DNA from: Squalus acanthias
Taxonomy: Eukaryota
Reading direction: 5' to 3'
Assembly (NCBI GenBank): GCA_030390025.1
Contig: CM059432.1
Coordinates: 85,562,001 to 85,626,000, forward strand
DNA: 64,000 nucleotides
How positions within the stretch are numbered: position 1 is the first letter of the stretch; each line of letters begins with the position of its first letter. A program made the position numbers and the translations under genes. Below, piece after piece: positions 19,541-60,673 of the stretch. The notes beneath the pieces were generated by a model that was given only the letters and a program-made list of their open reading frames with translations, made no database searches and had not been told where the DNA came from.

Positions 19541-20373
19541 TGTTGAGAAGTAGAGTTGAGCAATCCTCCACCCTCCCACAATTTCATGTCTGTTGTTTAC
19601 TCCCTCTTCCTGGTGACTAGACCCTTTGTGAAAAGCACAAGAATGAATGTCAGCTCAAGCTTAGGGCTCTGGGATACATTTTCTCTTTTTTGATACAAAA
19701 CTTCCTTAGTGGACTGTGCTGTTTGTGATCATTTACCTAGTCGCAACTTTCTAATTAGTCTCAACATTGGTCTGGAAAGCCGGAATACTACTGGGATTTT
19801 GTACTAAATCTTCCCGTCATTCAGCTGTACAGGATTATGTGGGATTTTTATTTAATTTTGTTTTCTTTAACTTCAAGCCACAAATAAATCTGTGAGCTGG
19901 AAAATCACTTATAATATGCATCTGTTAGCTAGCCATGTTGCATTGTTGACCTTGATTTTGCCATATATTGGTGAATGAATTTACAGCATCACAAAGTGTG
20001 GAGTACAAGTTTGATACTTCATTCCATTCAGTTCTTGAGCTACTAAGAGGAAGAGGGCTAAATTGGATAGACCCCAAAAAGAGGCGCAGGGTTTGCGATG
20101 TGCCCACGCCCGTTCAATGTAATGCAGGCAGCACGCCATCTTCGTACTGCCTGCTCATTATCATGATTACTGCATGCAGCCAGTGCTAACTGCGCTGTTC
20201 ATTGGCTGCACGCATCAGCAGGGGGGCCAATATCGTTACTTGCTAGCACTACTTAAAGCTAGCTTGCACTGCTTAAAGCTAGACTGCACCTCTTAAAGGG
20301 AAGGTGCATTGTGGCTGCTGGAGGTGCTGACATCATTCGGGAAAGTGCTGAGCAACAAACAACAATAGTGATC

Positions 20374-22794
20374 ATGGGAGAGACCGTGAACCAAGGTTTT
20401 CCAACACTGCACTGGAGGTCTTGGAGGAGAATGTGGAAATGAGGAGAGATGTCCTGTATCCACAGAGGGGCAAGAGGCCCTCCAGACACACGATGGGAAG
20501 GCAATGGGAACAGATAGCCATGGAGGTAAATGCCAGGAGTTTCGCCCCTAGAAACTGGATGCAGTGCCACAAGATGTTTAATGACCTCACACGAGTGGTC
20601 AAGATCAATGAATGCATCTTCAAATGCCATATCCTACCAACTGCACCTCTAGCCTCAGCCACTGCTCAATTCACCACACCCCATCACTCGCCTACCAACA
20701 ATCTTTATCAATCAGGAATTATACCTAACATTCAGATGCTTCAACTCACCCTAACACACTTAGCACTGTTGCAAGCCTCACACTCACATCTCACAACTTG
20801 TGCACACTGCCAGCTATTCAACCATGACAGCCACATCACCTAAATATACTGCATGACACTCATTGACATACTTCCCTCTCTTGTAGGAGAAGGTGGCGCA
20901 CAACGAGAGGTAGCAGGAACTAACCGGAGGGGGAGAGGCACATCTGCATGTTCTAACTTCCATGGAGGAGACGGCGCTGGCCATTATCGGAAGGCCATGG
21001 CTGAGGCCATGGCCAGTAGCAGGGCTGAATCTATTGAAGATGACAGTATCCTTATACCTAATCCTCCTTCTCATATCCCACTTCCCCCTCATCCCACAAT
21101 CTCTTCTGACTTACAAGCTGAAGATGGTGTAAACATGCACTTCTTACTTTTCCCTCTCCCCTCACCACAACCTTACCCTTGTCCCCTTTCCGTTCAGATA
21201 CTCAAGAACTGCAACCTGGCCAAGCAGTGGAGGGAGACCAAGAAGACAGTAATGATGACTAAACACCGTCACTTGATTTCACACTCGCAGCCACCAGCTC
21301 AGATAGTGACATTGCGTGTATCTTAGAGGATAGCATAGAGGCGCAATCTGCACGTGATGAGACACCGGACACAGGCTGCAGTGAGAGCAGGGGCAAGGAT
21401 AGCGCAGATGCCAGCTCGCCGGAGGTCGAAGTCGCACACAAGTTCTGCTGCAGAGGACTCAGATGAGGTTATCAATGGGCCAGGCTGCAAAAAAAGGCTG
21501 ATGGGTGGACACACCGAAATGCTTGGTGTATTGTGAAGCCTACCAGAAAGCCTGCGTTCAATGTCAAGGAGCATGGAGGAGTCCGGCACCAACTTCGCAC
21601 AGGGCTTTGTGCAGTGCTTGGAGCCCATCCTTTCCAGCAACTGGTAGCCAACTCCATCAACACACTTGTGGACCCAACCATGATGCAGCATCAGCTCATC
21701 TGCTGCTGAAACCCTCATCCATGCCTTTGTTACCTCTAGACGTGACTATTCCAATGTACTCCTAGATGGCCTCCCACATCCTACCCTCTGTAAACTTGAG
21801 GTCATCCAAAACTCTGCCGCCCGTGTGCTAACTCGCACCAAGTCCCATTCACCCATCACCCCTGTGCTCGCTGACCTACATTGGCTCCCGGTTAAGCAAT
21901 GCCTCGATTTGAAATTCTCATCCTTGTTTTCAAATCCCTCCATGGCCTTGCCTTTCCCTATCTCTGTAATCTCCTCCAGCCCTACAACCCTCCGAGATAT
22001 CTGTACTCCTCCAATTCTGGCCTCTTGAGCATCTCCAATTTTAATCACTCTACCATTGGCAGCTGTGCCTTCAGCTGCCAAGGCCCTAAGCCTTGCCACC
22101 TTTCTACCTCTCTTTCCTCCTTTAAGATGCTCCTTAAAACCTACCTCTCTGACCAAACTTTTGGTCATCTGCCCTAATATTTCTTTATGTGGTTCAGTGT
22201 CAAATTTTGTTTGATAACGCTCCTGTGAAGAGTCTTGGAACTTCTTACTACATTAAAGGCGCTATATAAATACAAGTAGTTGTTGTTGTCTGATGGCCAA
22301 TGTCTCAGCTCCCATTGCAGCACAATCAGCTTCCAGCAAACGTCTGAGTGCTGCAGTGGAAGCTCAGACTGAGGTCATGCAAGGTCAGCTTGCTGCCATG
22401 CAAGCTCAGACTGCTGCTATCATGGCTGTGGATACCAGTGTTCAAAGGGGCTTACAGGGTGTCACAGCAGTCCTGCCATCATTCCTCCAACAGATTACTA
22501 GGATTTATGAGGCGCCGCCCCGGGGGAGTGGCAGTGGCTCCATGGAGCACGAATCTGCTTTTCTTTCTCAGGATGACAGCATTTGTGATCCCACCCCTGC
22601 CAGTCTGAAGCCGGGCCTTCAAGGCCCAGAGCTGCTCGAGGCGTCCTCCAAGGCCATATACAGTCTCCTCCACTGAAAGTCAGCAGCCTTCCACCAGCCA
22701 TGCTGCAGCCACAGGGGTAGCACTTCATAGGAGCACGAGGACAGGCAAAGGCACACGGAAGATAGGCACTAAGGGAATGCACAAGGGTAATTAG
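20374..22794 (+). pseudogene. Three-exon Harbinger Myb/SANT gene, disrupted by frameshifts and an L2 insertion
   Basis: RRDVLYPQRGKRP...QWEQIAMEVNARS...WMQCHKMFNDLTRVVK; acceptors at ~20886 (ttgtag|EKVAHN) and ~21198 (ttcag). Confidence 0.8.
21691..22288 (+). mobile_element. L2 3' fragment inserted in Myb exon 3
   Basis: AETLIHAFVTSR.DYSN...PITPVLADLHWLPV...LKTYLSDQTF; (ttg)n tail. Confidence 0.9.
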
Positions 22795-23712
22795 TTTAAT
22801 TTTGCATGCAATATGGCATAATTTAATTCATAAATTTGATTTGGATTGTGTATTTTGTGTTGGCTTTTATTATTATATTGTGGCCAAGAGGATGATCTGA
22901 TGGTCAGTGACAGAGGGAAGGTAAGGAGTGTGGGACTGTTGGTGAATGGGTTATTGGGATTGAGGTTTCTGGTATCGCACTTGAGTTAGTTCTTCGCGTA
23001 CAGCCCAGGCAGAAAGGGACTGTCTAGGTTGCAGCCTCCCTTCCTCTTCTCTCTCTTCCTCATCCTCCTCCCCCTTCTCCTCCTCCCTCTTCTAACAGCT
23101 TGTCCTGCTCTCGCCGGCCTCTGCTCATTCTCCCAGTCATGCTCGATTCCAAGAGGAAGACCTACTAGTGCACCCATGTCTGGGAGCAATTGGTTTGTGC
23201 AGAAGCCTTGAAGTCAGCAAAAAGTACTTCAGCACCCGCCACACCACTCCATGTATGCTTTTGAAACTTGAATCAACTATGTAAAGCACCAAAAACATGC
23301 AGAATTGTAGCAACAGCCAGAAGAAATCACCCAGCAACTAACCAATAAGTAGTTGATGATCCCTTTAAATAACACTGGTTGGCGGTCCTTCATGCTGCTT
23401 AACGCATGTTCAGCTGTGCGGGATTAAGAGAGGGAGTCAGCTGGAGCGTGCAGCTCCAAAATAGCAGCGCTGATGTCAAATCAGCGTTGCACACTGATTG
23501 ACATCATAATCTGTCTGCTCTGCTTACTTTCAGTGGACGTTAAGTGCTCATGCGCTAACCCCTTTACCAAGATGGGGTCCAGTGTGCTTTGCATCAGAAG
23601 TGTGCATGCACGCTGCGGACGACATTTTGGAACCCTAAGGCACTCGTAGCGCCCAAAAAACGGGCGTTACCGAGTCCAATTTTGCCCCTGAAGTGTCTAG
23701 TGGAGATGATGC

Positions 23713-23830: not shown

Positions 23831-25029
23831 TCATTCTCAGACTGGCAATCAGTAACTAGTGGTGTTCCACAGGGGTCAGTGCTGGGTCCCCAACTCTTCA
23901 CAATCTATATTAACGATTTGGAGGAAGGGACCAAGTGTAACATATCAAAATTTGCAGATGATACAAAGATGGGAGGGAAAGTAGTGAGTGAGGAGGACAT
24001 AAAAAACCTGCAAGGGGACATAGACAGGCTAAGTAAGTGGGCAGAGATTTGGCAGATGGAATACAACACTGGAAAGTGTGAGGTGATGCACTTTGGCAGG
24101 AAAAATCCTAGAGCAATTTATTATCTTAATGGCAAGAAACTGGTGAGTACTGAAGTGCAAAGGGATCTGGGGGTCCTGGTGCACGAAACTCAAAAGGTTA
24201 GTATGCAGGTGCAGCAAGTGATTAAGAAGGCAAATGGAATGTTGGCTTTCATTGCTAGGGGGATAGAATATAAAAATAGGGAGGTATTGCTTCAGTTGTA
24301 CAAGGTATTGGTGAGACCGCACCTGGAATACTGCATACAGTTTTGGTGTCCTTACTTAAGGAAAGACATCCTTGCTCTCGAGGCAGTGCAAAAAAGGTTC
24401 ACTCGGTTAATCCCGGGGATGAGGGGGTGGTCATATGAGGAGAGGTTGGGTAGATTGGGACTCTACTCATTGGAGTTCAGAAGAATGAGAGGCGATCTTA
24501 TTGAAACATATAAGATTGTGAAGGGGTTGGATCGGGTGGATGCGGGGAGGATGTTCCCGATGACGGGTGAGACGAGAACTAGGGGACATAGTCTTAGAAT
24601 AAGGGGCTGCTCTTTCAAAACTGAGATGAGGAGGAACTACTTCACTCAGAGGGTGGTAGGTCCATGGAATATGCTGCCACAAAAAGCTGTAGAAGCTACA
24701 ACATTAATTAAATTTAAAACAGAAATAGACAGTTTCCTAGAAGTAAAGGGCATTAAGGGTTACGGGGAGCGGGCAGGAATTTGGACATGAGTCTAGGTTC
24801 GGATCGGTCATGGCCCTGTGGGTAGTGGAGCGGGCCCAGGGACTGTGTAGCCTGATTCTGCTCCTATTTCGTGTGTGCAATTCTGTTAGATGCAGGAGAT
24901 GGTTCTGTGATAGATAGTAGATTGGCGGTTAGGATCAGATCAGCCATGATCTTATTGAATGGCGGAGCAGGCTCGAGGGGCCGATTGGCCTACTCCTGCT
25001 CCTATTTCTTATGTTCTTATGTTCTTATA
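23830..25029 (+). mobile_element. Young 5'-truncated CR1 with an uninterrupted RT C-terminal frame (to 24790)
   Basis: VTSGVPQGSVLGP, KFADDTK, LVRPHLEYC; (ttatgttc)n tail. Confidence 0.95.
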
Positions 25030-25160
25030 AGGGTCCTTTGTGAAATGAGTTTGGTCCCGTAACACGGCAACTGTGCAGTACCCTGATGCTAACAGTAGAT
25101 GCCTCAAATGGGCACTAATATCCTCTGGAAGAACAAGAGAATTAATCAAACGAGAGTGCA

Positions 25161-25482
25161 GGTTAGGGGAACAGTTTTAAGTTGTACCTCAATTGACATG
25201 TAGTCAGTTTAAAGCAGACAAGATAGTGTACTGCAGTATCAATATAAGTTGATAATCTGATTCGAATATTTGTTTGAAAGTACTCTGTATTTTAAAAACA
25301 AGTTTTGAGATTGTCTTGTGTGCTGCAGAACTGTGAGCTGTGATGCGATGAAGTCACGGAATTATACTCACAAAGCTGAGATGACTTCCTTGTACATAAA
25401 AGTTGCTTATCTTTTAAATGCTGCTATCTGTTAAATCTTTCTCCCATAGTGCTCTGAAATCAAATAGCTGCTTTTCAAACCT
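25161..25482 (+). repeat. 322-bp direct repeat, copy 1 (flanks RTE)
   Basis: Matches 26779-27100 with about 7 substitutions. Confidence 0.95.
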
Positions 25483-26778
25483 CTCTTCCTTCTCTTCTTA
25501 GGCAGTCCCTCAGAACCGAGGATGACTGCTTCCACACTAAAAATGAGTCCTCAGGTGACTGATGAGTCCAATGCGGGACTTACAGTCTCTGTCACAGGTG
25601 GGGCAGACGGTGGTTGAAGGGGCGGGTGGGTGGGGTGCTTGGGTTAACGTGCACTCCTTCCGCTGTTTGCGCTTGGCTTCCACTTGCTCCCGGCGAAGAG
25701 ACTTGAGGTGTTCGGCGCCTTCCCGGATGCTTCTCCTCCACTTTGTGCGGTCTTGCGCCAGGAATTCCCAGGTGTCAGTGGGGATGTTGCACTTTTTCAA
25801 GGAGGCTTTGAGGGTGTCCTTGAAGTGTTTCCTCTGCCCACCTGGGGCTCTCTTGCCGTGTCGGAGATCCAAGTAGAGCGCTTGTTTTGGGAGTCTCGTA
25901 TCAGGCATGCAGACGATGTGGCCCGTCCATCAGAGCTGATCGAGCGTGGTCAAAGCTTCGATGCTGGGGATGTTGGCCTGAGCGAAAACACTGACGTTGG
26001 TGCGCCTATCCTGCCAATGGATTTGCAGGATCTTGCGGAGGCAGCGTTGGTGATACCTCTCCAGTGCTTTGAGGTGCCTGCTGTACATGGTCCATGTCTC
26101 TGAAGCATGCAGGAGGGCGGGTATCACTACTGCTCTGTAGACCATGAGCTTGGTGCCGGGTTTGAGGTCCCGGTCTTCAAACACTCTCTTCCTCAGGTGA
26201 CCGAAGGCTGCACTGGCATACTGAAGGCGGTGTTGGACTTCGTCATCGACGTTTGCCCTTGTTGACAGTAGGCTCCTGAGGTATGGAAAGTGGTCCACGT
26301 TGTCCAAGGCCTCGCATTGGATTTTGATAATCGGGGAGCAGTACTGTGTGGCGGGGGCAGGTTGGTGGAGGACCTTTGTCTGACGGATGTTTAGTGTAAG
26401 GCCCATGCTCTCATACGCTTCAGTGAAGGTGTTGACGATGGTTTGGAGTTCGACCTCAGAGTGTGCGCAAACGCAAGCGTCGTCTGCATACTGTAATTCG
26501 ACAACAGAGGATGGGACGACCTTGGATCATGACTGGAAGCGATGGAGGTTGAACAGTTTCCCGTTTGTTCTGTAGATTAGCTCCACTCCAGCGGGGAGCT
26601 TGCTGAGGGTGAGATGGAGCATTGCAGCCAGGAAGATCGAGAAGAGCGTTGGTGCGATGACACAGCCTTGCTTGACCCCGGTCCGTACGTGAATTGGGTC
26701 TGTGGTGGATCCGTTGGTCAGGATCACGGCTTGCATGTCGTCGTGAAGCAGGCGGAGGATGGTGACAAACCAGTGACC
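25483..26778 (-). mobile_element. 5'-truncated RTE-clade LINE
   Basis: TGVKQGCVIAPTLF, QYADD, RLPKQALY, C-terminal CPTCDRDCKSRIGLISHLRTH zinc finger; AAG-rich tail. Confidence 0.9.
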
Positions 26779-27100
26779 GGTTAGGGGAACAGTTTTAAGT
26801 TGTATCTCAATTGACATGTAGTCAGTTTAAAGCAGACAAGATAGTGTACTGCAGTATCAATATAAGTTGATAATCTGATACTAATATTTGTTTGAAAGTT
26901 CTCTGTATTTTAAAAACAAATTTTGAGATTGTCTTGTGTGCTGCAGAACTGTGAGCTGTGATGCGATGAAGTCACGGAATTATACTCACAAAGCTGAGAT
27001 GACTTCCTTGTACATAAAAGTTGCTTATCTTTTAAATGCTGCTGTCTGTTAAATCGTTCTCCCATAGTGCTCTGAAATCAAATAGCTGCTTTTCAAACCT
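26779..27100 (+). repeat. 322-bp direct repeat, copy 2
   Basis: Matches 25161-25482. Confidence 0.95.
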
Positions 27101-28314
27101 AATTCTGATGCCACTGACCGCAAGTTGCTAATTGCTGAACAGCAGAACACATTGCTCTATTAAAGCGAATGAGTGTTCTTTTTGTAAAGGTTGCGCCTGG
27201 TTATTGGCAGACTGCGCCAAATTGGTCAGAAGTACTGTAATGATTTGAAATCAGGTCACGGTACGAATCATTTTAGGGTTAGTCATGAATCAGCTAATTA
27301 AAATACAACTTAAAAAGACTTTGTGAAAAGCTTTTGACATTATTATTGTATTCCATCCATAATGCAATAACAACATTTTTAGACTAATTGTATTAGAAAC
27401 AAATTGAAAATTTAAAAGAGAATTGCAGAATGCTCATCTGTATTTTGCCTTCTGATCTTCCTAAACAATGAAATCCGCAGGAAATTTTAAAGTAAATTGC
27501 CGTTCGCTAGATTGCCGCAAAAAACGGCGTAAATTGCAGTGTAATTTCTGCGTTAAGTGAGAAGCAGGAAATTCCGGGATCTTACAAAAAGGTTTACAAA
27601 TGATTATCTTTGTCAGTTTTCAGAATTACAATGTATCCTATTATCATTTTACTAAATCTTTGATCCAAAATACTTAAACAAACTCTACGATTTCTTATCC
27701 AAAATTATATTTCCAAACTAGGCAAAAATCCTACATAAAGACACAGCTGATTAAGTTCCATTGCTATTGAAAGCAATAGTTTTAAATATTTTTTAATTAA
27801 CTTGACAGCATAGAATCTCTGAACAACATCTAATACTACTGATGCTTTTAATATTGTTACTTTATCATTACTACCCACCGTACTTCCACCAGCTGCCGGC
27901 GGGTCCCATGGCGGCTGGTATTTTCAGATGGACAGCAGCCCTGCTGATGTCAACGCTCGGCAAAATTATGTAGATTATGCAGATCATGGCGTCAGTGAGT
28001 GTGCAATGCTCACTTGACACCCGATCTGCGAGTTTCGAATTAGCCGGTCCATTTACCGGCATGCCTTAAGTGCGCCGAGCTGAGCAAGCGTTAACAAGCA
28101 GGAAGGAGAATCCTGCAGCGTTATTTAAAGGGATCATCAGCAACAACTTGCAGCTGACGTTTCTGCAGTTTGACTGGCTTTGTGCAACTTTCTGCAATTC
28201 TAGCAGCTTTATTAACTTCTTTCAAGGTTCTACGGTAACAGGGAGTGTTGTTGCAAGTGCAGAATGCCTTCATTCTTATTTAAAGGCTTCTGCTCACAAC
28301 ACTTGCTGACAGTC

Positions 28315-29492
28315 ATGGGGGCTGTACTGGCAGTCCCGCTCGTGCTCGAGTATCTTAGGGAGAGGGAGCGGAGGCAGCGAAGAAGACGAGAAGATGCATG
28401 CAGAGGATGGAGGAGGAGGGCGAGGAGGGCTCTCAACAGGAGGCCTTACCCTCCTAATGTCTTTCGTGAGAACTTCTCTTATATCCACTTAAATAAGGAG
28501 CAGTGTATTAGAAGGCTCCGCCTCAATAAGGAGGTGGTCACAGAGCTCTGCCACCTCCTGCAATCAGACTTGCAGCCTGAGAGCAAGGCGAACACGGCTC
28601 ACCCAGTGGCAGTCAAGGTCACCTCAATTTCTTTGCCAGCGGATCCTTCCAGTCTGCAGCAGGAGACATAGCTAACATCTCACAGTTCGCCGTCCATCAC
28701 TGCATCTGGGAGTTCACTAAGGCTCTCTACACCAGGAGAAGGTACTACGTTTTCTTCTCTCTGAGCAGAGAGAAGCAGGACAAGAGCGCATGTGGCTTTG
28801 CGAGGATCGTGGACTTCCCCTTGGTGCAGGGCGCCATCAACTGCACCCACGTGGCTTTGCGGGTGCCGCATACCAGTCCTGAGATCTTCCGTAACCGCAA
28901 AGGCTACCACTCACTTAATGTGCAGTTGGTGTGCAACCACGCCCAGCTATTCCTGATGGTCAATGTCCACTATCCTGGCAGCAGCCATGATGCCTTCATC
29001 CTGCATCGGTCTGGTGTGCCAGAAATCTTCCAAACACCACATGAAACTTGAGGGTGGCTGCTCGGAGACAAGGGCTATCCGCTCTACACCTGGCTCATGA
29101 CTCCCCTCCGCAACCCCAACACTCGTGCCCAGCACTCATATAATGAGAGCCATGCTTCCACCAGGAACATCATCGAGCAGACCATCGGGCTACTGAAGCA
29201 ACGGTTCCGCTGCCTTGACTGCTCGGGAGAAGCCCTCCAGTAAATGCCGGAGCGGGTGTCTCATTTCATGGTGGTCTGCTACATGCTTCACAACTTGGCC
29301 ATCATGAGGACACAGCCCTTGCCAGCAGGGATTGCGGGACCACCTCAGAAGGAGGACGAGGGAGAGGAGGAGAAGGAGGAAGAGGAAGCTGAGCAAGAGG
29401 AAGAGGACAAAGATAAAGGGAGGAGGCAGGCAGCCAATCCCCCTTCCGGACAAGCTGTCCGTGAATGCCTCATCAGACACCGATTCCAATGA
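28315..29492 (+). pseudogene. HARBI1-type DDE transposase, frameshifted
   Basis: [71 protein letters not shown]; stops present. Confidence 0.9.
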
Positions 29493-29649
29493 ATGAAACC
29501 CCAGATCCCCGTTGCTCACCATACTCCATCCCTCTGTCATGGAATATCACAGCGTCCTCCTGGGCAGGAAACTGAATTGAGAGCCACCACAAAAGATTCC
29601 AAATAAAATTAATAAATTTATCAAAATCAATTGACACATACGTTATGAA

Positions 29650-31092
29650 CTAATCACCCTTGTGCAATCCCTTAGTACCTGTCACTCGGGTGCCCTTTCC
29701 TGATCTAATGCTCCTGTGAAGCGCTCCCCCAGTGGCTGCAGCATGGCTAGTGGAAGGCTGCTGAGTTTCCATGGGGGAGATTCAGATGGCCTTGCAGGAT
29801 GACCTCGAGCAGCTCTGGCCTTAGAAGGCCCGGCTGTAGACTGCACCACCTCGGCATGGGCGGCAGCAGTCTGGGCTGGCTGGCTGACAGGCAGTGGCAA
29901 GGGCAATGGTGGAGTGGCAGTGGTGGGAACAAGAATGCTGTCATCCTGAGAGAGGACAGCAGGGTTCTGTTCCACTGACCTACTGGCACTCCCCCGGAGC
30001 GGTGCCTCAGCATTCCTAACAATTTGTTGGCGCACAGATTGCTGGGCTGCTGTGACACCCTACAAGCCCTAGTCAACACTGGTAAACCCAGCCACAATGG
30101 CAGCAGTCTGAGCTTGGGTGGCATCAAGCTGAGACCGCATGACAGCGGTCTGAGCATGGGTGGCAGCGAGCTGAGACTTCATGGAAACGGTCTGCGCTTC
30201 CGCTGCAGCACTAAGACGTTGGGTCACTTCTGCCTGTGCTGCAATGGCAGCCGTGACATCGCCCATCACACGCAGCATCATGTCTGGGTCGACACGGTCT
30301 CTTCGGGAGTTTTCCATCTTTTTCAGCCTGAAAATCTTGTGCTCCAAGCTCTGCGCAAAGCCCCATGGAATGTTGGAGACGGACTCCTCCATGCTCCTTG
30401 ACATTGCCAAGAGGCTCTCTGGCAAGCTTGCCATTGCACCGAGCAATTCAGTGTGCATGGCCATCACTCTTCTTCTGAAGGCCGCCCCATCGAGGTCCTC
30501 ATCTGAGTCCTGTGCAGCAGAACTCACGTGCAAACTCGCCCTCCAGGGAGTTGGCCCCCGAGCTACCCTTTCGCCCGGCCTTGCTGCAGCCCACTCGTGC
30601 CCAGTACCTCACTTGTGCAGATCCCGCTTCTACACTAGCCTCTAAAGTACGCGCAGTGCCAGTTTCTGAGCTGGTTTCTGCAAGTGACGGAGTGATGCTG
30701 TGTCTTCTTTTTCTTCTCCCCCCTCGTTCTCCTGCATCGCCTCAGGGACAGGCTGCTCGGGTGCTTGTCCTTGAATGGCTGAAAGCAGAAAGGCACAAGA
30801 GTCGGGTTATGGTGAGGGAAGGGGGGGAAGCAAGATATGCATGCATACAGCATCAGCAGCTTGAAAGCGAGAACAGATTGTGGGATAAGGGGGAAGTGGG
30901 ATGTGAGAAGAAGGATTAGATATGAGCATACCGTTGTTGTTCCCAAAGTCTTCAACCTTGCCGGTTACCACGGCGTCCATGATCTCCAATGATCTCTAGC
31001 ACTCTCTCCTCCAGTTGGCTGAGGTCTTGGCTGGCAGCTTGCACCCTGCCTATCCGCTGCTGCTCCCTCCTGTTATGCGCAACCTTGCTCTG
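29650..31092 (-). pseudogene. Harbinger Myb-partner gene exons 2-3
   Basis: Homologous to 20887-22794 and 53280-54615 (HTELLGAMASLPESLLAMSRSMEES). Confidence 0.8.
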
Positions 31093-31420
31093 CAAGAGAA
31101 AGGGAAGTGTGTGAGTGAGTGTGGTGCAATGTACTTGGGTGATGTGCCTGCCATAGTTGAATAGCTGTCAGTGTGTGCAAGGTGTGAGATCACACATCTC
31201 ACACCTTGCACACAATGACAGCTATTCAACTATGGAATGCACAAGGGTCATTAGTTATTAGAATGAATGTGATATGTGTGATATGTTTATGCATAAATTT
31301 ATTAGTTTGCAATATTTTGTAGTCTCTCTCATTTCACCTTTGCATCCAGGAGGACGCTGTGATATGGCATGACACAGGGATGGTATGATGGGCATGTGGT
31401 GAGCAAAAGGGATCTGGGGT

Positions 31421-31698
31421 TTAAGTCATCCTGGTGTGAGGCTGGAGGTCTGTTTGGAGGACGTGGCAGAGTTCTGTGGCCACCACCTTGGTGATGTGGA
31501 GCCATCTAATACACTGCTCCTCGCTTAATTGAAGGTAGGAGAAGTGCTGTCGGAATATCCTCGGAGGGTAAGGCCTCCTGGTGAGAGCCCTGATGTCCCT
31601 CCTCATCCCTCTGTGCACATGTTCCCGTATTTCTGACTGCTTACGCTCCCTCCGCCGTAGATCCTGGAGGGCAAGGTGGCATGCCAGTACAACCCCCA
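31421..31698 (-). pseudogene. 5' fragment of a second HARBI1-type transposase
   Basis: MGVVLAC...RRPYPPRIFRQHFSYLQLSEEQCIRWLHITKVVATELCH. Confidence 0.85.
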
Positions 31699-32406
31699 TT
31701 AATGTTGCCAAATGTAGCAGTTTGAATCTTTGAACAATAAATGTAGTCACTTTGCACTTGCCAGAAGACTGCTGATAAAAAAGAAGCTTGAAATTACTCA
31801 TACAAACTCATTCACTGGGTGAAACTGACAAGAAACCACTGAAACTAACCTGCCCTGACAGCTGTGAGTAATTAATGCTAATGCCTTTAAATAATGTCGC
31901 TGGAGCCGGCTTCCTGCAGCTGTGCGCCAGCTCTCCCTGTCGCTGTCTGGTCGAGGTGCAAAGGTAATTGGCGACAATGAATTCTCCAGATCAGGCGCCA
32001 AGTGAGTGTTGCACGCTCGCTGACATCATGATCTGCCTGGCATTGAAGTCCCCGATGGCGCAACAGGGGTGGCGGATTTGCCTCGTCCGGCGCTACTGCA
32101 TCAGCGCCCCGTTACCGCCCTCTGCAGGCGCTAACCTACCGAATTTTTCCCCCTAAGAATCTGGCTTTAGCAGGAATTCTAGAAAACCGTAGTCACTTCA
32201 TGTCAGATATTCCTGTATTCCTACCATAGACATAAATAGAGATTTTAAAAACAACTTTTCTGAACTCCTTTGCACATATATGGGGCAAATACTGTACAAT
32301 TTTTGTTTCAGCTGAATAACAATACAGCAATATAAATCGATTGTATTCAAGCGCGCGTTCAGAGAGAAAATAAAACTATTTTGGTAATAGAATGAGACGG
32401 GAATAG

Positions 32407-32909: not shown

Positions 32910-35900
32910 GAAACATAGACACATAGAAGATAGGAGCAGGAGTAGGCCATTTGGCCACTCGAGCCTGATCCGCCATTTAATGAGATCATGGCTGATCATC
33001 CAAATTCAGTACCCTGTCCCTGCTTTCTCCCCATATCCCTTGATCCCTTTAGCCTTAAGAAATATATCTATCTCCTTCTTGAATATATTTAATGAATTGG
33101 CCTCAACTGCCTTGTGTGGTAGAGAATTCCACAGGATCACCACTCTCTGGGTGAAGAAATTCCTCCTCATCTCAGTCTTAAATGGCTTACCCCTTATCCT
33201 TAGACTGTGACCCCTGGTTCCGGACTCCCCCGCCATCGGGAACATCCTTCCTGCATCTAGTCTGTCTAGTCCTGTTAGAATGTTATAAGTTTCAATGAGA
33301 TCCCCTCTCATTCTTCTAAACTCTAGCGAATATAAGCCTAATCGACCCAATCTCTCCTCATACGTCATTCCTGCCATCCCAGGTATCAGTCTGGTGAATC
33401 TTGGCTGCACTCTCTCCATGGCAAGAACATCCTTCCTCAGATAAGGCGACCAAAACTGCACACAATACCCAAGGTGTGGTCTCACCAAGGTCCTGTACAA
33501 CTGCAGCAAGACATCCTTGCTCCTGCACTCGAATCCTCTCGCAAGAAGGCCAACATAACATTTGCCTTCTTAACCACCTGCTGCACCTGCATGCTTACCT
33601 TCAGCGACTGGTGCACAAGGACACCCAGGTCTCGTTGCACTTCCCCTTTTCCCAATCTATTGCCGTTCAGATAATAATCTGTCTTCCTGTTTTTGCCACC
33701 GAAGTGGATAACTTCGCATTTATCCACATTATACTGCATTTGCCATGCATCCGCCCAATCACCCAACCTGTCCAAATCATACTGGAGTTTCTCTGCATCC
33801 TCCTCACAGCACACACGCCCACCCAGCTTTGTGTCGTCTGCAAACTTGGAGATATTACATCTAGTTCCCTCGTCTAGATCATTAATATATATTGTGAATA
33901 GCTGGGGTCCCAGCACCGATCCCTGCGGTACCCCACTAGTCACTGCCTGCCACTCGGAAAAAGACCCGTTTATTCCAACTCTTTGCTTCCTGTCTGCCAA
34001 CCAGTTCTCTATCCAAGACAGTACCTTACCCCCAATCCCATGTGTTTTAACTTTGCATGCTAATCTCTTATGCGGGACCTTATCGAAAGCCTTCTCTGAA
34101 AGTCCAAATACACCACATCCACTGGTTCTCCCTTATCTATCCTACCAGTTACATCCTCAAAAAATTCCAGTAGATTAGTCAAGCATGATTTACCTTTTGT
34201 AAATCCATGTTGACTTTGTTCGATCCTGTCACTGTTTTCCAAGTGCTCTGCTATTACATCTTTTATAATGGACTCTAGCATTTTCCCCACTACCGATGTC
34301 AGGCTTACCGATCTATAATTCCCCGTTTTCTCTCTACCACCTTTTTTAAATAGTGGGGTTACATTAGCTATCCTCCAATCCATGGGAACTGTTCCAGAGT
34401 CTATAGAATTTTGGAAGATGACCCCAGCAATGCATCTACTATTTCTAGGGCCACCTCCTTAAGTACCCTAGGATGTAGATTATCAGGCCCTGGGGATTTA
34501 TTGGCCTTCAATCCCGTCAATTTCCCTAACACCATTTCCCTACAAATACTGATTTCATTTAATTCCTCCCTCTCATTAAACTCTATGTTCCCCGACATCT
34601 CTGGGAGGTTATTTGTGTCCTCCTTTGTGAAGACAGAACCAAAGTATGTATTTAATTGGTCTGCCATTTCTTTGTTCCCCATTATAAATTCCCCTGATTC
34701 TGACTGCAAGGGAGCTATGCTTGACTTCACCAATCTTTTTCTCTTCACATATCTATAGAAGCTTTTACAGTCAGTTTTTATGTTCACTGCAAGCTTACTC
34801 TCATAATCTATTTCCCCCCTCTTAATTAATCCCTTTGTCCTCCTTTGCTGAATCCTAAATTGCTCCCAATCCTCAGGTTTGCTGCTTTTTCTGGCCAAAT
34901 TATATGTACTCTCCTTGGATCTTACGCTATCCCTAATTTCACTTGTTAGCCACGGTTGAGTCACCTTTTTTGTTTTATTTTTATGCCAAACAGGGATGAA
35001 CAAATTCTGTAGTTCATCCATGCGATCTTTAAATGTCTGCCATTGCCTATCCACCGTCAACCCTTTAAGTAACGTTCCCCAATCCATCCTAGCTAACTCG
35101 TGCCTCATACCATCGTAGTTTCCTTTATTTAAATTCAGGACCCTAGTCTCTGAGTCAACTACTTCACTCTCCATCTTAATGAAGAATTCTATCATATTAT
35201 GATCGCTCCTCCCCAAGGGGCCTCGCACAACAAGATTGCTAATTAATCCTTTCCCATTACATAATACCCAGTCTAAGATGGCCTGATCGCTAGTTGGTTC
35301 CTCGACATATTAGTCCAGGAAACCATCCCGTTTTCACTCTAGGAATTCCTCCTCCACAGTATTGTTACTAATTTGGTTAGTCCAATCTATATGTAGATTA
35401 AAGTCACCCATGATAACTGTTGTGCCCTTATTGCACGCATCTCTAATTTCCCGTTTAATGCCATCCCCAACCTCAGCATTACTGTTTGGGGGTCTGTATA
35501 CAACTCCCACTAACGTTTTCTGCCCCTTGGTATTTCTCAGCTCTGCCCATACAGATTCCACATCATCAGAGCTAATATCCTTCCTTACTATTGTGTTAAT
35601 CTCTTTAACCAGCAATGCGACCCCACTTCCTTTTCCTTTTTTCCTGTCCTTCCTGAATATTGAATACCCCTGGATGTTGAATTCCCAATCTTGGTCACCC
35701 TGGAGCCATGTCTCCGTAATCCCAATTATATCATATCTGTTTACATCTATTTGTGCAGCTAATTCATCCACCTTATTACGAATGCTCCTCGCATTAAGAC
35801 ACAAAGCCTTCAGGCTTGATTTTTTAACACTCATAGTCCTTTTAGAATTATTATTTACTGTGGCCCTGTTTGATTTACACCCTTGATTTCTCTGCCTTCC

Positions 35901-37287
35901 ACTTTTGCTTTTCTCCTTCCTGTCTTTTATTTCTATCCTTGCTTCCCTTTCCTCTGTCTCCCTGCACAGGTTCCCAACCCCCTGCCATTTTAGTTTAAAC
36001 CCTCCCCAACAGCACTAGCAAACACTCCCCCTTGGACATCGGTTCCGGTCCCGCCCAGGTGCAAACCGTCCAGTTTGTACTGGTCCCACCTCCCCCAGAA
36101 TTGGTTCCAATGTCCCAGGAATTTGAATCCCTCCCCCTTGCACCATTCCTCTACCCACGTATTCATCTGAAATATCCTTCTATTTCTACTCTGACTAGCA
36201 CGTGGCACTGGTAGCAATCCTGAGATTACTACCTTTGAGGTCCAATTTTTTAATTTACCTCCTAACTCCCTATATTCAGCTTTTAGAACCTCATCCCGTT
36301 TTTTACCTATATCGTTGGTACCTATATGCACCATGACAACTGTCTGTTCACCCTCCCCCTCCAGAATACCCTGCAGCCGGCCCGAGACATCCTTGACCCT
36401 TGCACCAGGTTGGCAACATACCATCCTGGAGTCTCATTTGCGGCCACAGAAACGCCTATCTATTCCCCTTATAATAGAATCCCCTATCACTATAGCTCTC
36501 CCGCTCTTTTTCCTCCCGTCCTGTGCAGCAGGACCACCCATGGTGCCAGGAAGTTGGCTGCTGCTACCTTCCCCCGATAAGCCATCTCCCTCAACAATAT
36601 CCAAAGTGGTATATCTGTTTGAAAGGGGGATGGCCATAGGGGACCCCTGCACTACCTGCCTGCGCCTACTACTCTGCCTGGTGGTCACCCATTCCCTTCC
36701 TGCCTGTGCAGCCTTTACCTGCGGTGTGACCAACTCCCTAAACGTGCTATCCACGATGTCCTTAGCATCGTGAATGCTCCAGTATGTATCCATTCGCAGC
36801 TCCAGCGCCGCAATGCGGTCTGCCAGTAGCTGCAGCTGGATACACTTCCCGCACACATGATCGTCAGGGACACAGGAAGTGTCCCTGATTTCCCACATAG
36901 TGCAGGAGGAGCATGCCATGGGGCCGAGCTGTGCTGCCATGACTTACCCTTTAATTAATTCAAATTAAATTAAATCAAATCAATACCACTAATTACACTA
37001 CAATTAAATGATATACTCAAGGGCCCTTGTTTACTAGCACTCCCCGCTACACAACAGAGACCCTAGAAACTATAAACCACAAAAATTAAGTTTGGAAAAA
37101 AGCGAGAAAGAGAGAAATACTCATCAACCAATCACTTACCTGCTTTCTGGTGACGTCACACTTCAATTACTTTTTACTTCTCTCTGCTGCCACCGGTGAG
37201 TCTGGGCCGCTCTCTCTCCCCGCTCTTTAATTCCTCGCTCTCCGCGCTCAGTCTCCACCCAGGGCCGCTCTCGCTGCTGCCGCCGGT
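32910..37287 (-). mobile_element. Full-length CR1 LINE, inactivated
   Basis: GC-rich 5' UTR, ORF1 35990-36940, ORF2 (APE + RT) ~33006-35989 with frameshifts, 3' microsatellite tail. Confidence 0.95.
35990..36940 (-). pseudogene. CR1 ORF1 (Zn finger + SGNH esterase) with a premature TGA at 36434
   Basis: CxxC..CxxC, IGDSII, HIGTND, DGLHL; CGA in the intact copy at 60674 is TGA here. Confidence 0.92.
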
Positions 37288-38845
37288 CTTCATAACTTCC
37301 CAATTACGCCCCCCACAGGAAATTCCAATCTATTTTCTTATTAACTAAATAACATTTAGTGGTGAAATCTTTCAATGATGCCTCACGTCATTAATGGTGT
37401 CCTATTACACGCTTCTCTATTTACAATCCTGATATATTGTCTCACATGACAGTTTAACAAATGACAGTGGCCCTTTAATTGAATATCTAAAAATTCACTA
37501 TTTGTATTAGGTGCAATAAATAGAAACTCAATCAAAAAAAATTCCATGTAATCTGCTTATATTGACTGAATTATTTTAGCTGTTAACTTATTTATTCCTG
37601 GATTTTATCATTGTTGCAACTAAGCAGTGTTTAAAGAAGCATGTTGCAATACTTATTTAAATAATTTACTACATGGCAGCAAGATAAAATGAATAGTATG
37701 AAATCATTCACATTTTAGAAATCCTTCTATTGCAATTAAAAGTTTGCATATTCCATAGTGAACTCCTGATAAGTGAAGAGAGTTTTGGAAGGAATAGAAG
37801 ACTGTTTAACAAGTAAATGTTGCTATTCAGAGGGATTTGAGTGTCTTTGTACACGAATCACAGAAAGCTAACATGCAAGCAATTAGGAAGTCAAATGCTA
37901 TGTTACCTGTTAACTGCGGCCTGAAACTTAGTTCTACTTCCTTTCAGGCTTGTTGCAATGTTAGCTTATGGGAATGATGTTCTGGAGTGGCACAGAGAGC
38001 CACCCTCCTTACCACCAGTTGTACACCACCACCACTTTAAGCTTGGATGCTGGGCCACTCCATCACTTATCTGCAGACTCACAGCTGCACCTTTAGTTTC
38101 CATTCTCTTCATTTTTCTATTCCCCTTCAGCGTTGACGAAGGCTGCTAATAAATTGAGATGCTTTATGATCCTTTCCAATTTTTGTCTCCCTATTGCCCT
38201 TTAATTGTCCAAATTCCTTTAAATTCCACTTACATAAAATTTTCCATTTCCACCGTGAGTGTTTACCCTGCAACCATCCAAATCTGTATTTGAAGATAGG
38301 CAGGATTATGATATTGAGCTGGGCTGGTAAAATTGGGTGTAAATAGCACAATTCCACTCATGTCATGACAAAACCAATTTCTAACCATTCAAGTATAAAT
38401 TGCATCCACCCTAGTGACTCGTATCAGCTCCCTCAAATATACTCCCTGAAAATCCACAGGCCACTGATTCCTAATTCACCTGCAAATAATTGGTGCCCTT
38501 GCCACCAGGGGAGCATCTAGGGTACCAAAAACCCAAGCTGAAAGTTCCAGCGTAAGCGACCTAACTGGAGGCGGTGGGCCAGTTTTGGCTCCCCTATCCC
38601 GGAAAGATGTTGTAAATGCCTCCAGGTTTTATCTACATGTGCCATTGCGTCAATTGGTTAACCTGATCCCACCAGATAACTGCGCTGATCGTACATTAGG
38701 TCCCACTGAAGACCTGGGATGCAAGAACTCTGATGTACAAGGTCTCTCGCCACCCCTAGCCTTGTCTTCCCTTATTTTGATGCCCATGGTTGCAGTGGGC
38801 AGAAGCTTTGCCTCCTGTAGTCCACCCCAGAACCTTTGGTGGATT

Positions 38846-41800
38846 GAATCATAGAATGGTTACAGCACGGAAGAAGGCCATTTGGCCCGTCGAGCCCGTG
38901 CCAGCTCTCTGCAAGAGCACTTCAGCTAGTCCCACTCCCCTGCCCTTTCTCCATAGCCCTGCAAACTTTTTTCCTTCAGGTACTTATCCAACTCCCTTTT
39001 GAATGCCATGATTGAGTCTGCCTCCACCACCCTTTCATTCCACTCGCTGAAAAAAAAGTTTTCCCTCATGTCGCCTTTGGTTCATCTGCAATCACCTTAA
39101 ATCTGTGTCCTCTGGTTCTCGACCCTTCTGCCAATAGGAACAGTTTCTCTCTATCTATTCTGTCCAGACCCCTCATGATTTTGAACACCTCTATCAAATC
39201 TCTTCTCAATCTTCTCTGCTCCAAGGAGAACAACCCCAGTTTTTCCAGTCTATCCACATAACTGAAGTCCCTCATCCCTGGAATCATTCTTGTAAATCTT
39301 TTCTGCACCCTCTCTAAGGCCTTCACATCCTTCCTAAAGTGCGGTGCCCAGAATTGGACACAATACTCCAGTTGAGGCCGAACCAGTGTTTTATACAGGT
39401 TCATCATAATTTCCACGCTTTTGTACTCTATACCTCTATTCATGAAGCCCAGGATCCTGTAAGCTTTTTTAACTGCTTTCTCAACCTGCCCTGCCACCAT
39501 CAACGATTTGTGCACATATACCCCTAGGTCTCTCTGTTCATGCACCCCCTTTAGGATTGTACCCTTTAGTTTATATTTCCTCTCTTCCTTCTTTCTACCA
39601 AAATGTATCACATCGCACTTTTCTGCATTAAATTTAATCTGCCACGTGTCTGCCCATTCCACCAGCCTGTCTATTTCCTCTTGAAGTCTATCACTATTCT
39701 CCTCACTGTTCACTATACTTCCAAGTTTTGTGTCATCTGCAAATTTTGAAATTGTGCTCTGTACACCCACATCCAAGTCATTAATATATATCAAGAAAAA
39801 CAGTGGTCCTAGTACCGACCCCTGGGGAACACCACTTTATACCTTCCTTCAGTCCGTAAAACAACTGTTCTCTGCTACTCTCTGGGGGAGAAATTCAGTA
39901 TCGCCCCATTTGGGGCGCAATTATCGGCCGGGCGCAAAGATTAGCGCCTGGCACTAATTATCGCCACCGACTGCAAACTTGACTTTTATCGCCCCTGGAG
40001 GTGATTGGAGCGCTAAATCAGGCGCTTCACACCTGTCTTAAGGCGCAAAGGCCGAGGAGCGAGGCGCTACCTCAGAGCGCTGGCGAAGCTCATGTAATGT
40101 CAGTCAGCAATGGAACACACACACAATGGCACGGGCCAGTTCTTAAAGGGGATGGTTAATCTCACTTTCCATTCACATCCTGCTCATTGCAGCCTTGAAT
40201 CTCGGCCTGGAGAGACCTGCACATCAAATCTGCTGGAAAGAACAATGGAGAGTACCAGGCAAAGAGCTCAGAGTGCAGCCCCCACAGTCTCTTCTAAATC
40301 GATACAAGGAATGGCAAATCAAAATGAACCTGCAAAGTACTGCTCAGTACCCAAAACTCCTTCACACAACGTTGAAACTCTCCAGAAGTCTCTCTCTCTC
40401 TCTCTCAGAATGCGTAGTTCAAAAATGGCACCAACAATAAAAGGCAGGAAGCGGTCACCTTTAAATAGCGCTCCCCCTTTCCCTTCATGACTGCAGAACG
40501 CTCCACTCAAACTGTCGTTGCTAGCGTCAGGCGGTAAGGCAGGGGGAGCCACTCAATATCCGCTCCGGGGCGATACTGGGGCGTTGCGCACTCGACTGAC
40601 GTCACGATCTGCCGGCGCAGGAGATCGTGGCGGTAGTGTTTAGCGCCGCCGCAAAATGTCTAGTTAATTTCGCGAGCGGCGCAAACTTCGCCCCGCCTGG
40701 GCGCTAGATGCTTTGCGCCCCATTAGCGCCCTCTTAAGGCGCTAATGGGAGGCGCAACCAACTGAATTTTTCTGTTTCCTATCACTTAGCCAATTTTGTA
40801 TGCATGCTGCCACTGTCCTTTTTATTCCATGGGCTTCAACTTTGTGGCACTTTGTTGAATGCCTTTTGGAAATCCATGTACGCCACGTCAACCACATTGC
40901 CCTCATCAACACTCTCTGTTACCTCATCAAAAAACTGAATCAAATTGGTTCAACACGATTTACCTTTAACAAATCCGTTCTGGCTTTCCGTAATTATTCC
41001 ACACTTGTCCAAGTGACTGTTAATTTTGTTCCTGATTATTGTTTCTGAAAGCTTCTCCACTACCAAGGTTAAACTGATTGGCCTGCAATTGTTGGGTTTA
41101 TCTTTACACCTTTATTGAACAAGGGTGTAACATTTGCAGTTCTCCAGTCCTCTGGCAACACCCCTGTTTCTAAGGAGGATTGGAAAAGTATGGCCAGTAC
41201 CTCCGCGATTTCTTCCTTCACTTCCCTCAGCGTCCAAGGATGCATCCCATCTGGTCCTGGTGACTTATCTACTTTAAGTACAGCCAGCCTTTCTAGTACC
41301 ACCCCTTTATCAATTTTTATCCTATCCAGTATCTCCTCTACCTCCCCCTTCACTATATTTATGGCAGCATCTTCTTCCTTGGTGAAGACCGATGCAAAGT
41401 ACTCATTTAGCACCTCAGCCATACCCTCTACCTCCATGCGTAGGTCTCTTTTTTGGTCCCTACTCGGCCCCACCCCTCCTCTTACTACCCGTTTACTATT
41501 TATATGCTTATAGAAGACTTTTGGATTACCTGTGGGTTTTTTTTTTCACTTCTCCTCTGAACTTTCTATATTTTGCCTGATTCTCAGATGTATTCTCGAC
41601 CTGACATCTGTCATACACGCTCTTTTTCTGCTTCATCTTACTTTCTATCTCTTTCGTCATCCAGGGAGCGCGAACTTTAGTTACCCTACCTTTCCCCCTC
41701 GTGGGAATGTAGCTTGACTGTACCCGAACTATTTCCTTGTTAAAAGCAGCCCTTTGTTCGATTACAGCTTTGCCTGTCAATCTTTGATTCCAATTTACCT

Positions 41801-42195
41801 GGGCCAGATCCGTTCTCATCCCACTGAAATTGGCCTTCCTCCAATTAAGTATTTTTACTGTAGATTGCTCCCTGTCCTTATCCATAGCTAATCTAAACCT
41901 TATGATACGATGATCATCGTTCCCTAAATGTTCCCCTACGGACACTTGCTCCACTTGACCTACCTCATTCCCCAGATCCGGCAATGACTCCTCGTTGGGC
42001 ATGAAACGTACTGATCAAGAAAGTTCTCCTGAACACACTTCAGAAATTCTTCACCCTCCCTGCCATTTACACTATTATTATCCCAGTCTATATTAGGATA
42101 GTTGAAGTTCCCCATTATCACTACTCTATAGTTTTTGCATCTCTCCGTAATTTCTCTGCAAATTTACGCCGCCATATTTTTCCCACTAGTTGGCT
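38846..42195 (-). mobile_element. CR1 (second subfamily) ORF2 with deletions, interrupted by a MITE
   Basis: KFADDTK, KSPGPDGMHPWTL; 3' tail ttctatgattc; same subfamily as 57105-59800. Confidence 0.9.
39884..40770 (+). mobile_element. Harbinger MITE, copy 1 (right TIR lacks 6 terminal nt)
   Basis: gggggagaaattcagt ... actgaatttt; TSD TCT; near-identical to 61812-62693. Confidence 0.92.
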
Positions 42196-42269: not shown

Positions 42270-43021
42270 GTTGAAGGCCAACGGAATGTTGGCTTTTATT
42301 GCTAGGGGGATAGATTATAAAAACAGGGAAGTATTGCTGCAGTTATATAGGGTATTGGTGAGACCGCACCTGGAATACTGCATACAGTTTTGGTGTCCAT
42401 ACATAAGAAAAGACATACTTGCTCTCGAGGCAGTACAAAGAAGGTTCACTCGGTTAATCCCGGGGATGAGGGGGTGGACATATGAGGAGAGGTTGAGTAG
42501 ATTGGGACTCTACTCATTGCAGTTCAGAAGAATGAGAGGCGATCTTATTGAAACATATAAGATTGTGAAGGGGCTTGATCGGGTGGATGCGGTAAGGATG
42601 TTCCCAAGGATGGGTGAAACTAGAACTAGGGGGCATAATCTTAGAATAAGGAGCTGCTCTTTCAAAACTGAGATGAGGAGAAACTTCTTCACTCAGAGGG
42701 TAGTAGGTCTGTGGAATTTGCTGCCCCGGGAAGCTGTGGAACCTACATCATTAAATAAATTTAAAACAGAAATAGACAGTTTCCTAGAAGTAAAGGGGTT
42801 ATGGGGAGCGGGCAGGAAATTGGACATGAGGCTGAGTTCGGATCGGTCAAGGCCCTGTGGGTGGCGGAGCGGGCCCAGGGGCTGAGTGGCTGGGTCCTGC
42901 TCCTACTTCTTGTGTTCTTTAGATTTGAGGTTAGGATCAGATCAGCCATGATCTTATTGAATGGCGGAGCAGGCTCGAGGGGCCGATTGGCCTACTCCTG
43001 CTCCTATTTCTTATGTTCTTA
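42270..43021 (+). mobile_element. 5'-truncated CR1, same subfamily as 23830
   Basis: KANGMLAFIARGI...LVRPHLEYC; doubled 3' UTR module. Confidence 0.92.
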
Positions 43022-43319: not shown

Positions 43320-43578
43320 GTTAGCCTTTATTGCAAGGGGGTTGGAGTATAGGAGTAAGGAAGTCTTGCTGCAATTATATAGTGCTTTGGTGAGACCACA
43401 CCTGGAGTACAGTGCACAGTTTTGGTCTCCTTACCTTTGGCCGGGTCCTGCTCCTACTTCTTGTGTTCTTTAGATTTGAGGTTAGGATCAGATCAGCCAT
43501 GATCTTATTGAATGGCGGAGCAGGTCAAGGGGCCGTATGGCCTTCTACTGCTCCTATTTCTTACATTCTTGTGTTCTT
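43320..43578 (+). mobile_element. CR1 fragment with internal deletion or chimeric 3' end
   Basis: LAFIARGLEY...QFWSPYL joined directly to the 3' UTR. Confidence 0.75.
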
Positions 43579-43579
43579 A

Positions 43580-50530: not shown

Positions 50531-51996
50531 GGCTAGTGGGGATCAGGCAGGCCACAGTTAGCGGGGAGGGGGCAGTGCTGGCGGCTAGATAACATGCTCA
50601 GTAATGGGCTTATGGGTGAAAAACTCTTCGTAGGTGAGGGGGCTGGGTAGGAAACTGTCCTGATTGCAGCCAGACTGCTTCACTGAGGGAGATTGCAGGT
50701 GGGAAACTGTCTCAGTGGGGAGGCGGGTATTGCGAGCCACAGCATAGGCACTAGGGTTTCCTCGAACAAATACCTGCTCAGCAACCACACAGCATGGGGA
50801 GCTTCACCTAACCAAGGCGGCCATAATAAAGGGGGCCAGCGAGTCCGGAGAGAAGTGCAGGGAAGCTGGACTTCAGCTGTGGCAGCTGCACCAAAAGTTG
50901 AGCACTGACCTGAAAGTGCCAACGCCAAGTCAAAGCTGGGGGTGCAGATCGGGAGAGCAGGGTGGTCCACTGACTGTCCTGGGGGTTAAAGCATGATACG
51001 CAAATGGATGACAGGCAAGGCAACTTCGCAGAGGGGCTTGCAAAAATATAATAGTGGGCCAGGATATGGGTCTAATATAAGAGGCCGAATAGGAAACTGG
51101 ATGAGAAGTTGAAAAATGTTCTGAGCAGCAAATGTCTTTATAGCTAAGGAAAGACAAAATTAAAAATATCCTTGTTGTCAAAGGAGAGTGGGGGTGGGGT
51201 CAATTAATGTCCTGCACATGGAATAAATCAAAATTTATTGGTTTACCACAAACTGATACTTACCCCAGTTTGTAAGCTTCTGTGATCCAGTAGAAGCGTT
51301 GCTATAGTGGTCAGGGATGGAAAGACAATGTAGACTCTTTTGGACAGTTGACTATTGCATGTGTTTTATAAAACATGTAACATGACAGCCACAGTACCAG
51401 CCACCTGCATAACAGGTACTACAGGAATGTTGTGATTCACCCAGCTGGTTAGAAAAGAAGGCTGCAAAATTCGGCTCTGTAGCACCCGTTGTTTGGGCGC
51501 TACGGGTGCTGATTCGGGTCCAAAATGGTGTCCGTGGCACACGCGCACACTTGTGGTACTGGCTGCGCTAGACACCATCTTAGCGCGGGCGCAGGGAACG
51601 TGCACCGAAAGTATACAGGGTAGGCAAATCGTGACATCAATCAGCAGGCAACACTCATTTGATGCCAGTGTTTTCATTTTGGAGCTCAACGCTCCAGCTA
51701 ACGCCCTATCTTAAACACATACAGTTGAACACGCCTTCAGCAGCAGGTAGGACCCGCCCGCCAGCGCTATTTAAAGGGATCATCAACTACTTACAGGTTA
51801 GTTGCTGATTGATTTCTACTGGCGGTTGCTGTGTTTGTAGAGATTGATTTCTACTGGCGGTTGCTGTGTTTGTAGAAGTGTTTGGTGCTTTGTACAGTTA
51901 TTTAAAGTTGCTAAAGTCCAGAGAGAGTGGTCTGGCAGGTGCTGAAGGACTTTGTCCTGACTTCAAGGATTCTGCACAGACCACTTACTTCAAGAC

Positions 51997-53107: not shown

Positions 53108-53279
53108 ACGCAACCCCAATTCCACATTCACCAACAGTCCCACAGCTTACCTTCCCTCTGTCACTGACCATCACAGCGTCCACTTGAGCGCAATGCAAAG
53201 GTAAAAGCCAGCACAAAATAAACATTCCAAACCAAATTTATAAATGAAATCATGCCATATTGCATACAATCATAAACAA

Positions 53280-59800: not shown

Positions 59801-59803
59801 TTA

Positions 59804-60534: not shown

Positions 60535-60673
60535 TTTTTTGGTTTATAGTTTCTAGGGTCTCTGTGGTGTAGCGGGGACAGTTGGTAAACAAGGGCCCTA
60601 TATCATTTAATTATAGTATAATTGGTGGGATTGATTTGATATAATTTAAGTTCAATTAATTAAAGGGTAAGTC

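Follow-up and report, generated by a model that had tools for sequence, protein, structure and literature searches.

A probable oversized TSD of 322 bp around a 5'-truncated RTE-like LINE in Squalus acanthias

The window analysed here is a stretch of 64,000 nucleotides from Squalus acanthias (assembly GCA_030390025.1, contig CM059432.1, positions 85,562,001 to 85,626,000). A 5'-truncated RTE-like LINE occupies 25483-26770 of this window on the minus strand, and it lies between two direct copies of a 322-bp segment (Table 1). No host gene was detected in a Pfam scan that covered 82 of the 115 stop-to-stop ORFs of at least 105 aa and four others, small exons being outside its scope; matches were obtained in 15 of the 82 ORFs, and all of them are to transposon-type domains except one sub-threshold HTH. 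A search of 24800-28000 against Rfam gave no match up to an E value of 0.1, and no function was found for the duplicated 322 bp.

Table 1. Coordinates of the features at the LINE locus
Feature	Position	Strand	Remarks
Copy 1 of the 322-bp duplication	25161..25482	.	Adjoins the 3' end of the element; host sequence, rich in AT, without an Rfam match
3' UTR of the LINE, 54 nt, with degenerate (GAA)n-like tail	25483..25536	-	Family contigs align from 25493; 25483-25492 is the copy's own 10-nt tail
LINE ORF, 3' 410 codons (C-terminal part of RT, C2H2 finger), with two in-frame stops	25537..26770	-	5'-truncated at 26770
Eight extra nucleotides, cagtgacc	26771..26778	.	Present in neither the LINE family nor the duplication
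Copy 2 of the 322-bp duplication	26779..27100	.	Lies beyond the 5' end of the element; first-strand nick inferred at 27100/27101
Possible template for the eight extra nucleotides	27111..27120	+	9/10 match to 26770-26779; 10 nt past the inferred nick

Decayed Harbinger-like transposons with DDE_Tnp_4 and Myb domains (68-82% alike) are found at 20059-23685, 27980-31793, and 51464-55422, and two of the three flank the locus in opposite orientation. A 48-bp inverted repeat, 94% complementary and with a 5-nt loop, is located within Harbinger-like sequence at 31143-31243, and segments of 35 and 33 bp are perfectly duplicated in tandem at 51807-51876 and 54998-55071. CR1/L2-like LINEs with a GDSL-esterase ORF1 and an APE endonuclease (84-93% alike) lie at 34503-42193 on the minus strand and at 57878-63999 on the plus strand, nested in older copies. 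An element of 882-893 bp with terminal inverted repeats, which we take to be a Harbinger-type non-autonomous transposon, occurs at 39880-40772 and 61808-62689 (96.6% alike); it sits at different places in two copies of the CR1-like LINE, the second time with a 3-bp TTT duplication. Two other pairs were considered as long TSDs and rejected. The pair 44694-45020/46130-46444 (88%) represents separate insertions of one repeat 3' end, each starting with a T-run and each inserted into one older CR1-like element, and the pair 42887-43020/43438-43570 (93%) represents separate copies of a repeat tail. Copies of this CR1-like 3' tail, with an internal duplicated motif of roughly 58 bp, are found at 42887-43020, at 43438-43579 (a short truncated insertion), and also at 24918-25027.

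The two copies at the LINE locus had been described beforehand as equal in length with about seven mismatches, and this is confirmed by the alignment: each copy is 322 bp long, and the pair differs by seven substitutions and no indels (97.8% identity, BLAST E value 7e-159). The substituted positions in copies 1 and 2, respectively, are 25187/26805, 25262/26880, 25264/26882, 25282/26900, 25302/26920, 25426/27044, and 25438/27056. When the flanks are included in the alignment, the similarity ends at both boundaries. Extending the duplication leftward by a further 6-7 nt would require one gap and one change, and this was dropped since a contig of related organisms aligns from exactly 26779.

Contigs of four runs among ten public runs were aligned to 25483-27900, and the remaining six (X2-X5, X7, and X10) were left out. 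X1 is a same-species run (depth 4), X6 is from organism B (depth 3.8), and X8 and X9 are from organisms D and E in one study. The aligned stretch contains one copy of the segment, and no contig spanning both copies was seen. Differences and loose ends are reported here as those among the listed ones, 132 difference rows and most of the loose ends falling outside the list.

In the window, the 322-bp segment matches its own two copies only, and its ends (GG...CT, or AG...CC on the other strand) are not of the LTR type TG...CA. Over this segment the summed contig depth, which is not a copy number, is 4-7 in X1, 0-4 in X6, 19-45 in X8, and 13-46 in X9, whereas depths of 1e4-4e6 are reached on the LINE. 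Because the segment is thus near single-copy (4-46 against 1e4-4e6) in all four runs, it is locus-specific DNA and not a repeat family or an LTR, which answers a question that the preliminary description had raised.

The LINE remnant itself gave weak RVT_1 and C2H2 matches under the Pfam cut-offs. Of 3043 candidate relatives of its protein, 474 are homologs at E<=1e-20, and the closest are 54-56% identical across the full remnant. Among the 120 relatives listed, 86 have at least 1000 aa, most of them with PF03372/PF14529 and PF00078, and a C-terminal C2H2 finger is found in 83 of these 86 full-length relatives; BovB is not known to have such a finger. A scan of metagenomes for relatives yielded four loci from 74 candidate stretches, and the best of them (L001) is 57% identical and has one 1094-codon stop-to-stop frame. 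L001 was rejected for a comparison of TSDs since it belongs to a different family and its contig ends with the element, without a flank. One relative annotated in the fish Oryzias sinensis (in the cluster of P0119) shares a 90% cluster with four proteins of Nematostella vectensis, possibly as a result of horizontal transfer, contamination, or a clustering artefact.

The remnant shares only about 20% identity with the CR1-like RTs of the window in long alignments, and no other copy of it was found by BLAST within the 64 kb. Its RTE label is putative and is drawn from the architecture and from RTE-like motifs, and the 120 listed relatives carry no clade names. The very short 3' UTR ending in tandem repeats (54 nt, (GAA)n-like) is of the RTE type. 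A single long ORF with an APE endonuclease and RT is present in the relatives, and it was seen there rather than on the truncated remnant. According to the accessible text of PMC1291365, which deals with an insertion of Rte-1 in prk-1 of C. elegans, such an ORF defines the RTE clade. The tail of HmRTE-e01 is given as (GAA)2GA in the available part of PMC2887409, and a motif search in the supplements of that paper provided no tie to a named RTE. Overall, the element appears to fit the RTE clade by its predicted architecture.

The boundaries of the element were set by its family. Contigs of the family depart from the window sequence after 26770 in all four runs, with 19, 8, 63, and 61 contigs at the loose ends; therefore, the 5' truncation can be placed at 26770, which leaves 26771-26778 as the extra bases. 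At the opposite end, contigs of the family start at 25493 and run on as (TTC)n on the plus strand into unrelated flanks, and the family consensus ends in TTCTTCT on the same strand. Other copies of the family have unrelated AT-rich flanks (loose-end agreement 0.37-0.47). The direct repeats thus adjoin both ends of the element, with no nucleotide in between at the tail, where the LINE meets copy 1 at 25483, and with exactly eight at the 5' end. Both junctions agree with the preliminary description, in which the tail abutted copy 1 and cagtgacc was noted as extra sequence. In the sense of the element, the tail passes straight into the duplication, which begins with A after T. Neither a second, short TSD around the LINE nor a T-stretch about 10 nt upstream of the inferred nick was seen at the locus.

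LINE junctions have been described as carrying extra 5' bases that were copied from the flanks, as stated in the accessible part of PMC4245944. The stretch at 27111-27120 is the only near-match in the window to the 10-mer 26770-26779, and it may be regarded as a weak lead to the template of the extra bases. The chance level of such a match is 1.1% for the 10-mer, a word picked after the fact, and 15% for the 8-mer alone, and the match falls to 8/10 with two mismatches if the base of D and E at 27119 is used.

Junction bases of this kind, non-templated or locally templated, are also typical of end-joining, by which the LINE cDNA could have been patched in, independently of its endonuclease, while a break or a stalled fork was repaired with a tandem duplication. 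L1 has been described at the junctions of small tandem duplications in cancer genomes and clones; however, the authors trace these duplications to breaks made by L1 in the available text (bioRxiv 10.1101/2024.12.14.628481). The element adjoins the boundary of the copy with an intact 3' end and tail, as would be expected with priming from the 3' end of the RNA, and it is quite unlikely that such capture produced the locus.

Insertion and duplication probably arose together in one retrotransposition event initiated by TPRT, and the duplication would be an oversized TSD. This is suggested because the element fills the junction, bordered only by its degenerate tail and by eight extra nucleotides and lacking a short TSD besides, because the LINE seems no younger than the duplication, and, as a weak indication, because the duplication begins with A after T, just as most animal RTE TSDs start with A. 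Judged from the anatomy of the locus and standard TPRT, the LINE protein would have nicked the plus strand at 27100/27101, and the (GAA)n tail would have primed reverse transcription. The truncation indicates that cDNA synthesis would have halted after about 1.29 kb. An annealing-type repair may then have joined the free cDNA end to a site 322 bp upstream of this nick and may, in the same step, have added the eight extra bases that are present there; fill-in would have copied the intervening 322 bp to give the two copies.

The preliminary description attributed the far end to second-strand nicking about 320 bp away. Two routes have been published, a distant second nick (PMC5223499) and repair synthesis that starts at a broken end (bioRxiv 10.1101/2024.12.14.628481), as far as these sources are accessible. 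The two fit the sequence equally well, and the odds between them are roughly even. The giant TSD proposed in the same description is supported by the locus-specific nature of the 322 bp, the element at the junction, and the lack of a short TSD, short of proof. Counted against an origin in one event are the missing empty site, the LINE not being seen between the copies of D and E, the missing T-stretch near the nick, the mostly short TSDs of RTEs, the contigs of X1, X6, and X8 that cross 27100 unbroken, and the single contig of X1 over 26860-27100.

The same locus was traced in the related organisms. X8 and X9 each have two contigs of 229 nt over 26856-27084; one version shows seven differences and no gap, and the other shows eight differences and two 2-nt indels, the same in D and E. 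Their depths are 13.5 and 13.8 against 13.8 in the flank for X9, and 22.6 and 17.8 against 14 for X8, contig depth not being a copy number and both runs coming from one study. It is unlikely that the two contigs are alleles since the same pattern is found in two organisms, each version being about as deep as the flank. A single contig of the relatives aligns from exactly 26779 to 26885. The right-flank contig of X9 begins at 27071, 30 bases before the boundary, with extra depth left over there; with an assumed word length of 31 in the assembly graph, this start indicates a branch right after 27100. Because the segment occurs in two versions in D and E, and because a branch at exactly 27100 is indicated in X9, the duplication probably predates the split of the species in the window from D and E, and the same contig structure suggests that the insertion was inherited from before this split.

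No contig with the 5' junction of the LINE was seen in D and E over 26779-26855 among the contigs aligned, and no empty single-copy site was found among the four runs. Contigs of X1, X6, and X8 cross 27100 unbroken. X1 has a single contig over 26806-27900, and organism B is covered at 26914-27517 only. The single contig of X1 and the unbroken passage of X1, X6, and X8 over 27100 may be explained by contig simplification. In all four runs a TG is present at 27212 that is missing from the window, as a result of either a private deletion or an assembly error.

The one contig of X1, instead of two, over most of the segment is what would be seen if the assembly had joined two flank haplotypes around a heterozygous insertion. 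However, D and E each carry two versions near flank depth with identical indels in both, and the X1 contig begins one base after the mismatch at 26805, as expected with two upstream paths. Such an artefact, or an LTR or other repeat in place of the 322-bp segment, of which the depth excludes a repeat family, is therefore most improbable. The two versions in D and E, where the LINE junction was not seen, would also be expected if a tandem duplication had come first and a LINE had later been inserted by chance at its junction; the branch after 27100 in X9 is expected from a tandem junction too and does not discriminate. However, the insertion must then have struck the junction to the base and left no TSD of its own, and the LINE seems no younger than the duplication. 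This order of events is thus very unlikely.

The seven differences between the copies correspond to 2.2%, with a 95% range of 0.9-4.5%. Relative to D and E, 31 of about 829 positions in the right flank are changed (3.7%). At equal rates, a duplication that predates the split should show 12 differences between its copies, and the probability of seven or fewer is 0.08. The two figures are compatible, and a naive date from the copies is likely to be too young. The divergence of about 2% in the preliminary description was borne out; however, the LTR-like clock that was based on it is weak, given this range and a duplication that seems older than the 3.7% split. With a pair of 322 bp, the age can be set no more precisely than to a factor of about two in either direction.

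The LINE copy shows up to 71 listed differences from its family in X1, an upper bound for the whole aligned stretch that includes family-variable sites, and therefore it does not look younger than the duplication. Its divergence from the family seems to be no smaller than that between the two copies of the segment, though it is CpG-rich (64 CpG in 1288 bp, against 3 in the 322 bp). This divergence would agree with two steps, in which the LINE inserted with an ordinary short TSD and a later break in the element was repaired through an illegitimate switch to the empty chromosome. A switch 322 bp upstream while the site was polymorphic could, by one crossover, have left flank, segment, 5'-truncated LINE, extra bases, segment, and flank in this order. 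However, a second rare event would have had to strike the locus before the polymorphism was lost, whereas long TSDs made in one step have been seen experimentally, and the two-step origin is unlikely.

At 322 bp, a TSD from a single event would be outside the usual range of RTEs. In the accessible parts of the literature, TSDs of the RTE clade are mostly 7-15 bp, most animal ones starting with A (PMC6007223), with a peak at 10-12 bp (PMC4245944) and a range of 6-19 bp in hagfish RTEs (PMC7245038), and across vertebrates TSD length is noisier for RTE-BovB than for L1 (PMC13320814). L1 gives TSDs of more than 100 bp in up to 10% of insertions in HeLa and in most events in NER-deficient cells (PMC5223499), and extremely long TSDs accompany 5'-truncated L1 copies in HeLa assays (PMC2912911). 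The claim that the mechanism can duplicate host sequence is sound, such events being already in print (PMC5223499, PMC9977147). A literature search, with subscription papers mostly outside its scope and supplements of PMC2887409 only, found no vertebrate RTE with a TSD that runs to hundreds of bases, and no length for the TSD of an RTE or of R9 was found in the available portions of PMC4408412, PMC2861651, PMC5035012, and PMC3636483.

The large TSDs of human L1 resemble the present locus in the APE-type LINE, the 5' truncation, and the target copy of more than 100 bp (PMC5223499, PMC2912911, PMC4245944), and either a distant second nick or break-induced replication has been put forward to account for them (PMC5223499; bioRxiv 10.1101/2024.12.14.628481). 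However, as far as the accessible texts go, they arose de novo in cultured or cancer cells, whereas the RTE-like element described here is a germline copy that was inherited and that several species apparently have in common. Dualen-4b_cRei of Chlamydomonas shares long and variable duplications with the locus, exceeding 50 bp in more than half of the cases with a median of 900 bp; in the available text, this family-wide habit is ascribed to RLE together with APE (PMC9977147), whereas one copy is seen here and its relatives have APE and RT Pfam domains only. R9 of bdelloid rotifers also has an exceptionally long TSD (126 bp, as cited in the accessible part of PMC9977147), but it is an rDNA-specific element of the R2 group with one length, in contrast to an APE element in low-copy DNA.

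A direct repeat of about 200 bp is said to flank Rte-1 in prk-1 of C. elegans, reportedly described by Youngman et al. in 1996. If so, this RTE-clade element shares a duplication of hundreds of bases with the locus, but it is a full-length copy in a nematode.

Most likely, the locus is a further example of a rare outcome that has already been described and not a new mechanism, and for the RTE-like family it is most likely a rare aberrant one. A single locus adds little since long TSDs are known for several LINEs and the duplicated DNA is without a found function. Its value is that of a clean, inherited germline case at a non-L1 vertebrate LINE, the published long TSDs being mostly from cell lines, tumours, and algae in the texts available, and it bears on the cutting and joining of the second strand, the least understood step of LINE insertion. 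It is unlikely that a sizeable fraction of the insertions of this abundant vertebrate family come with duplications of hundreds of bases, as in Dualen-4b but with a single APE endonuclease. If it did, thousands of small, self-dating host duplications would be scattered through these genomes, and they would have been overlooked because surveys of TSDs cap the length, with windows of 10-49 bp (PMC6007223) and 5-30 bp (PMC2912911) in the accessible descriptions.
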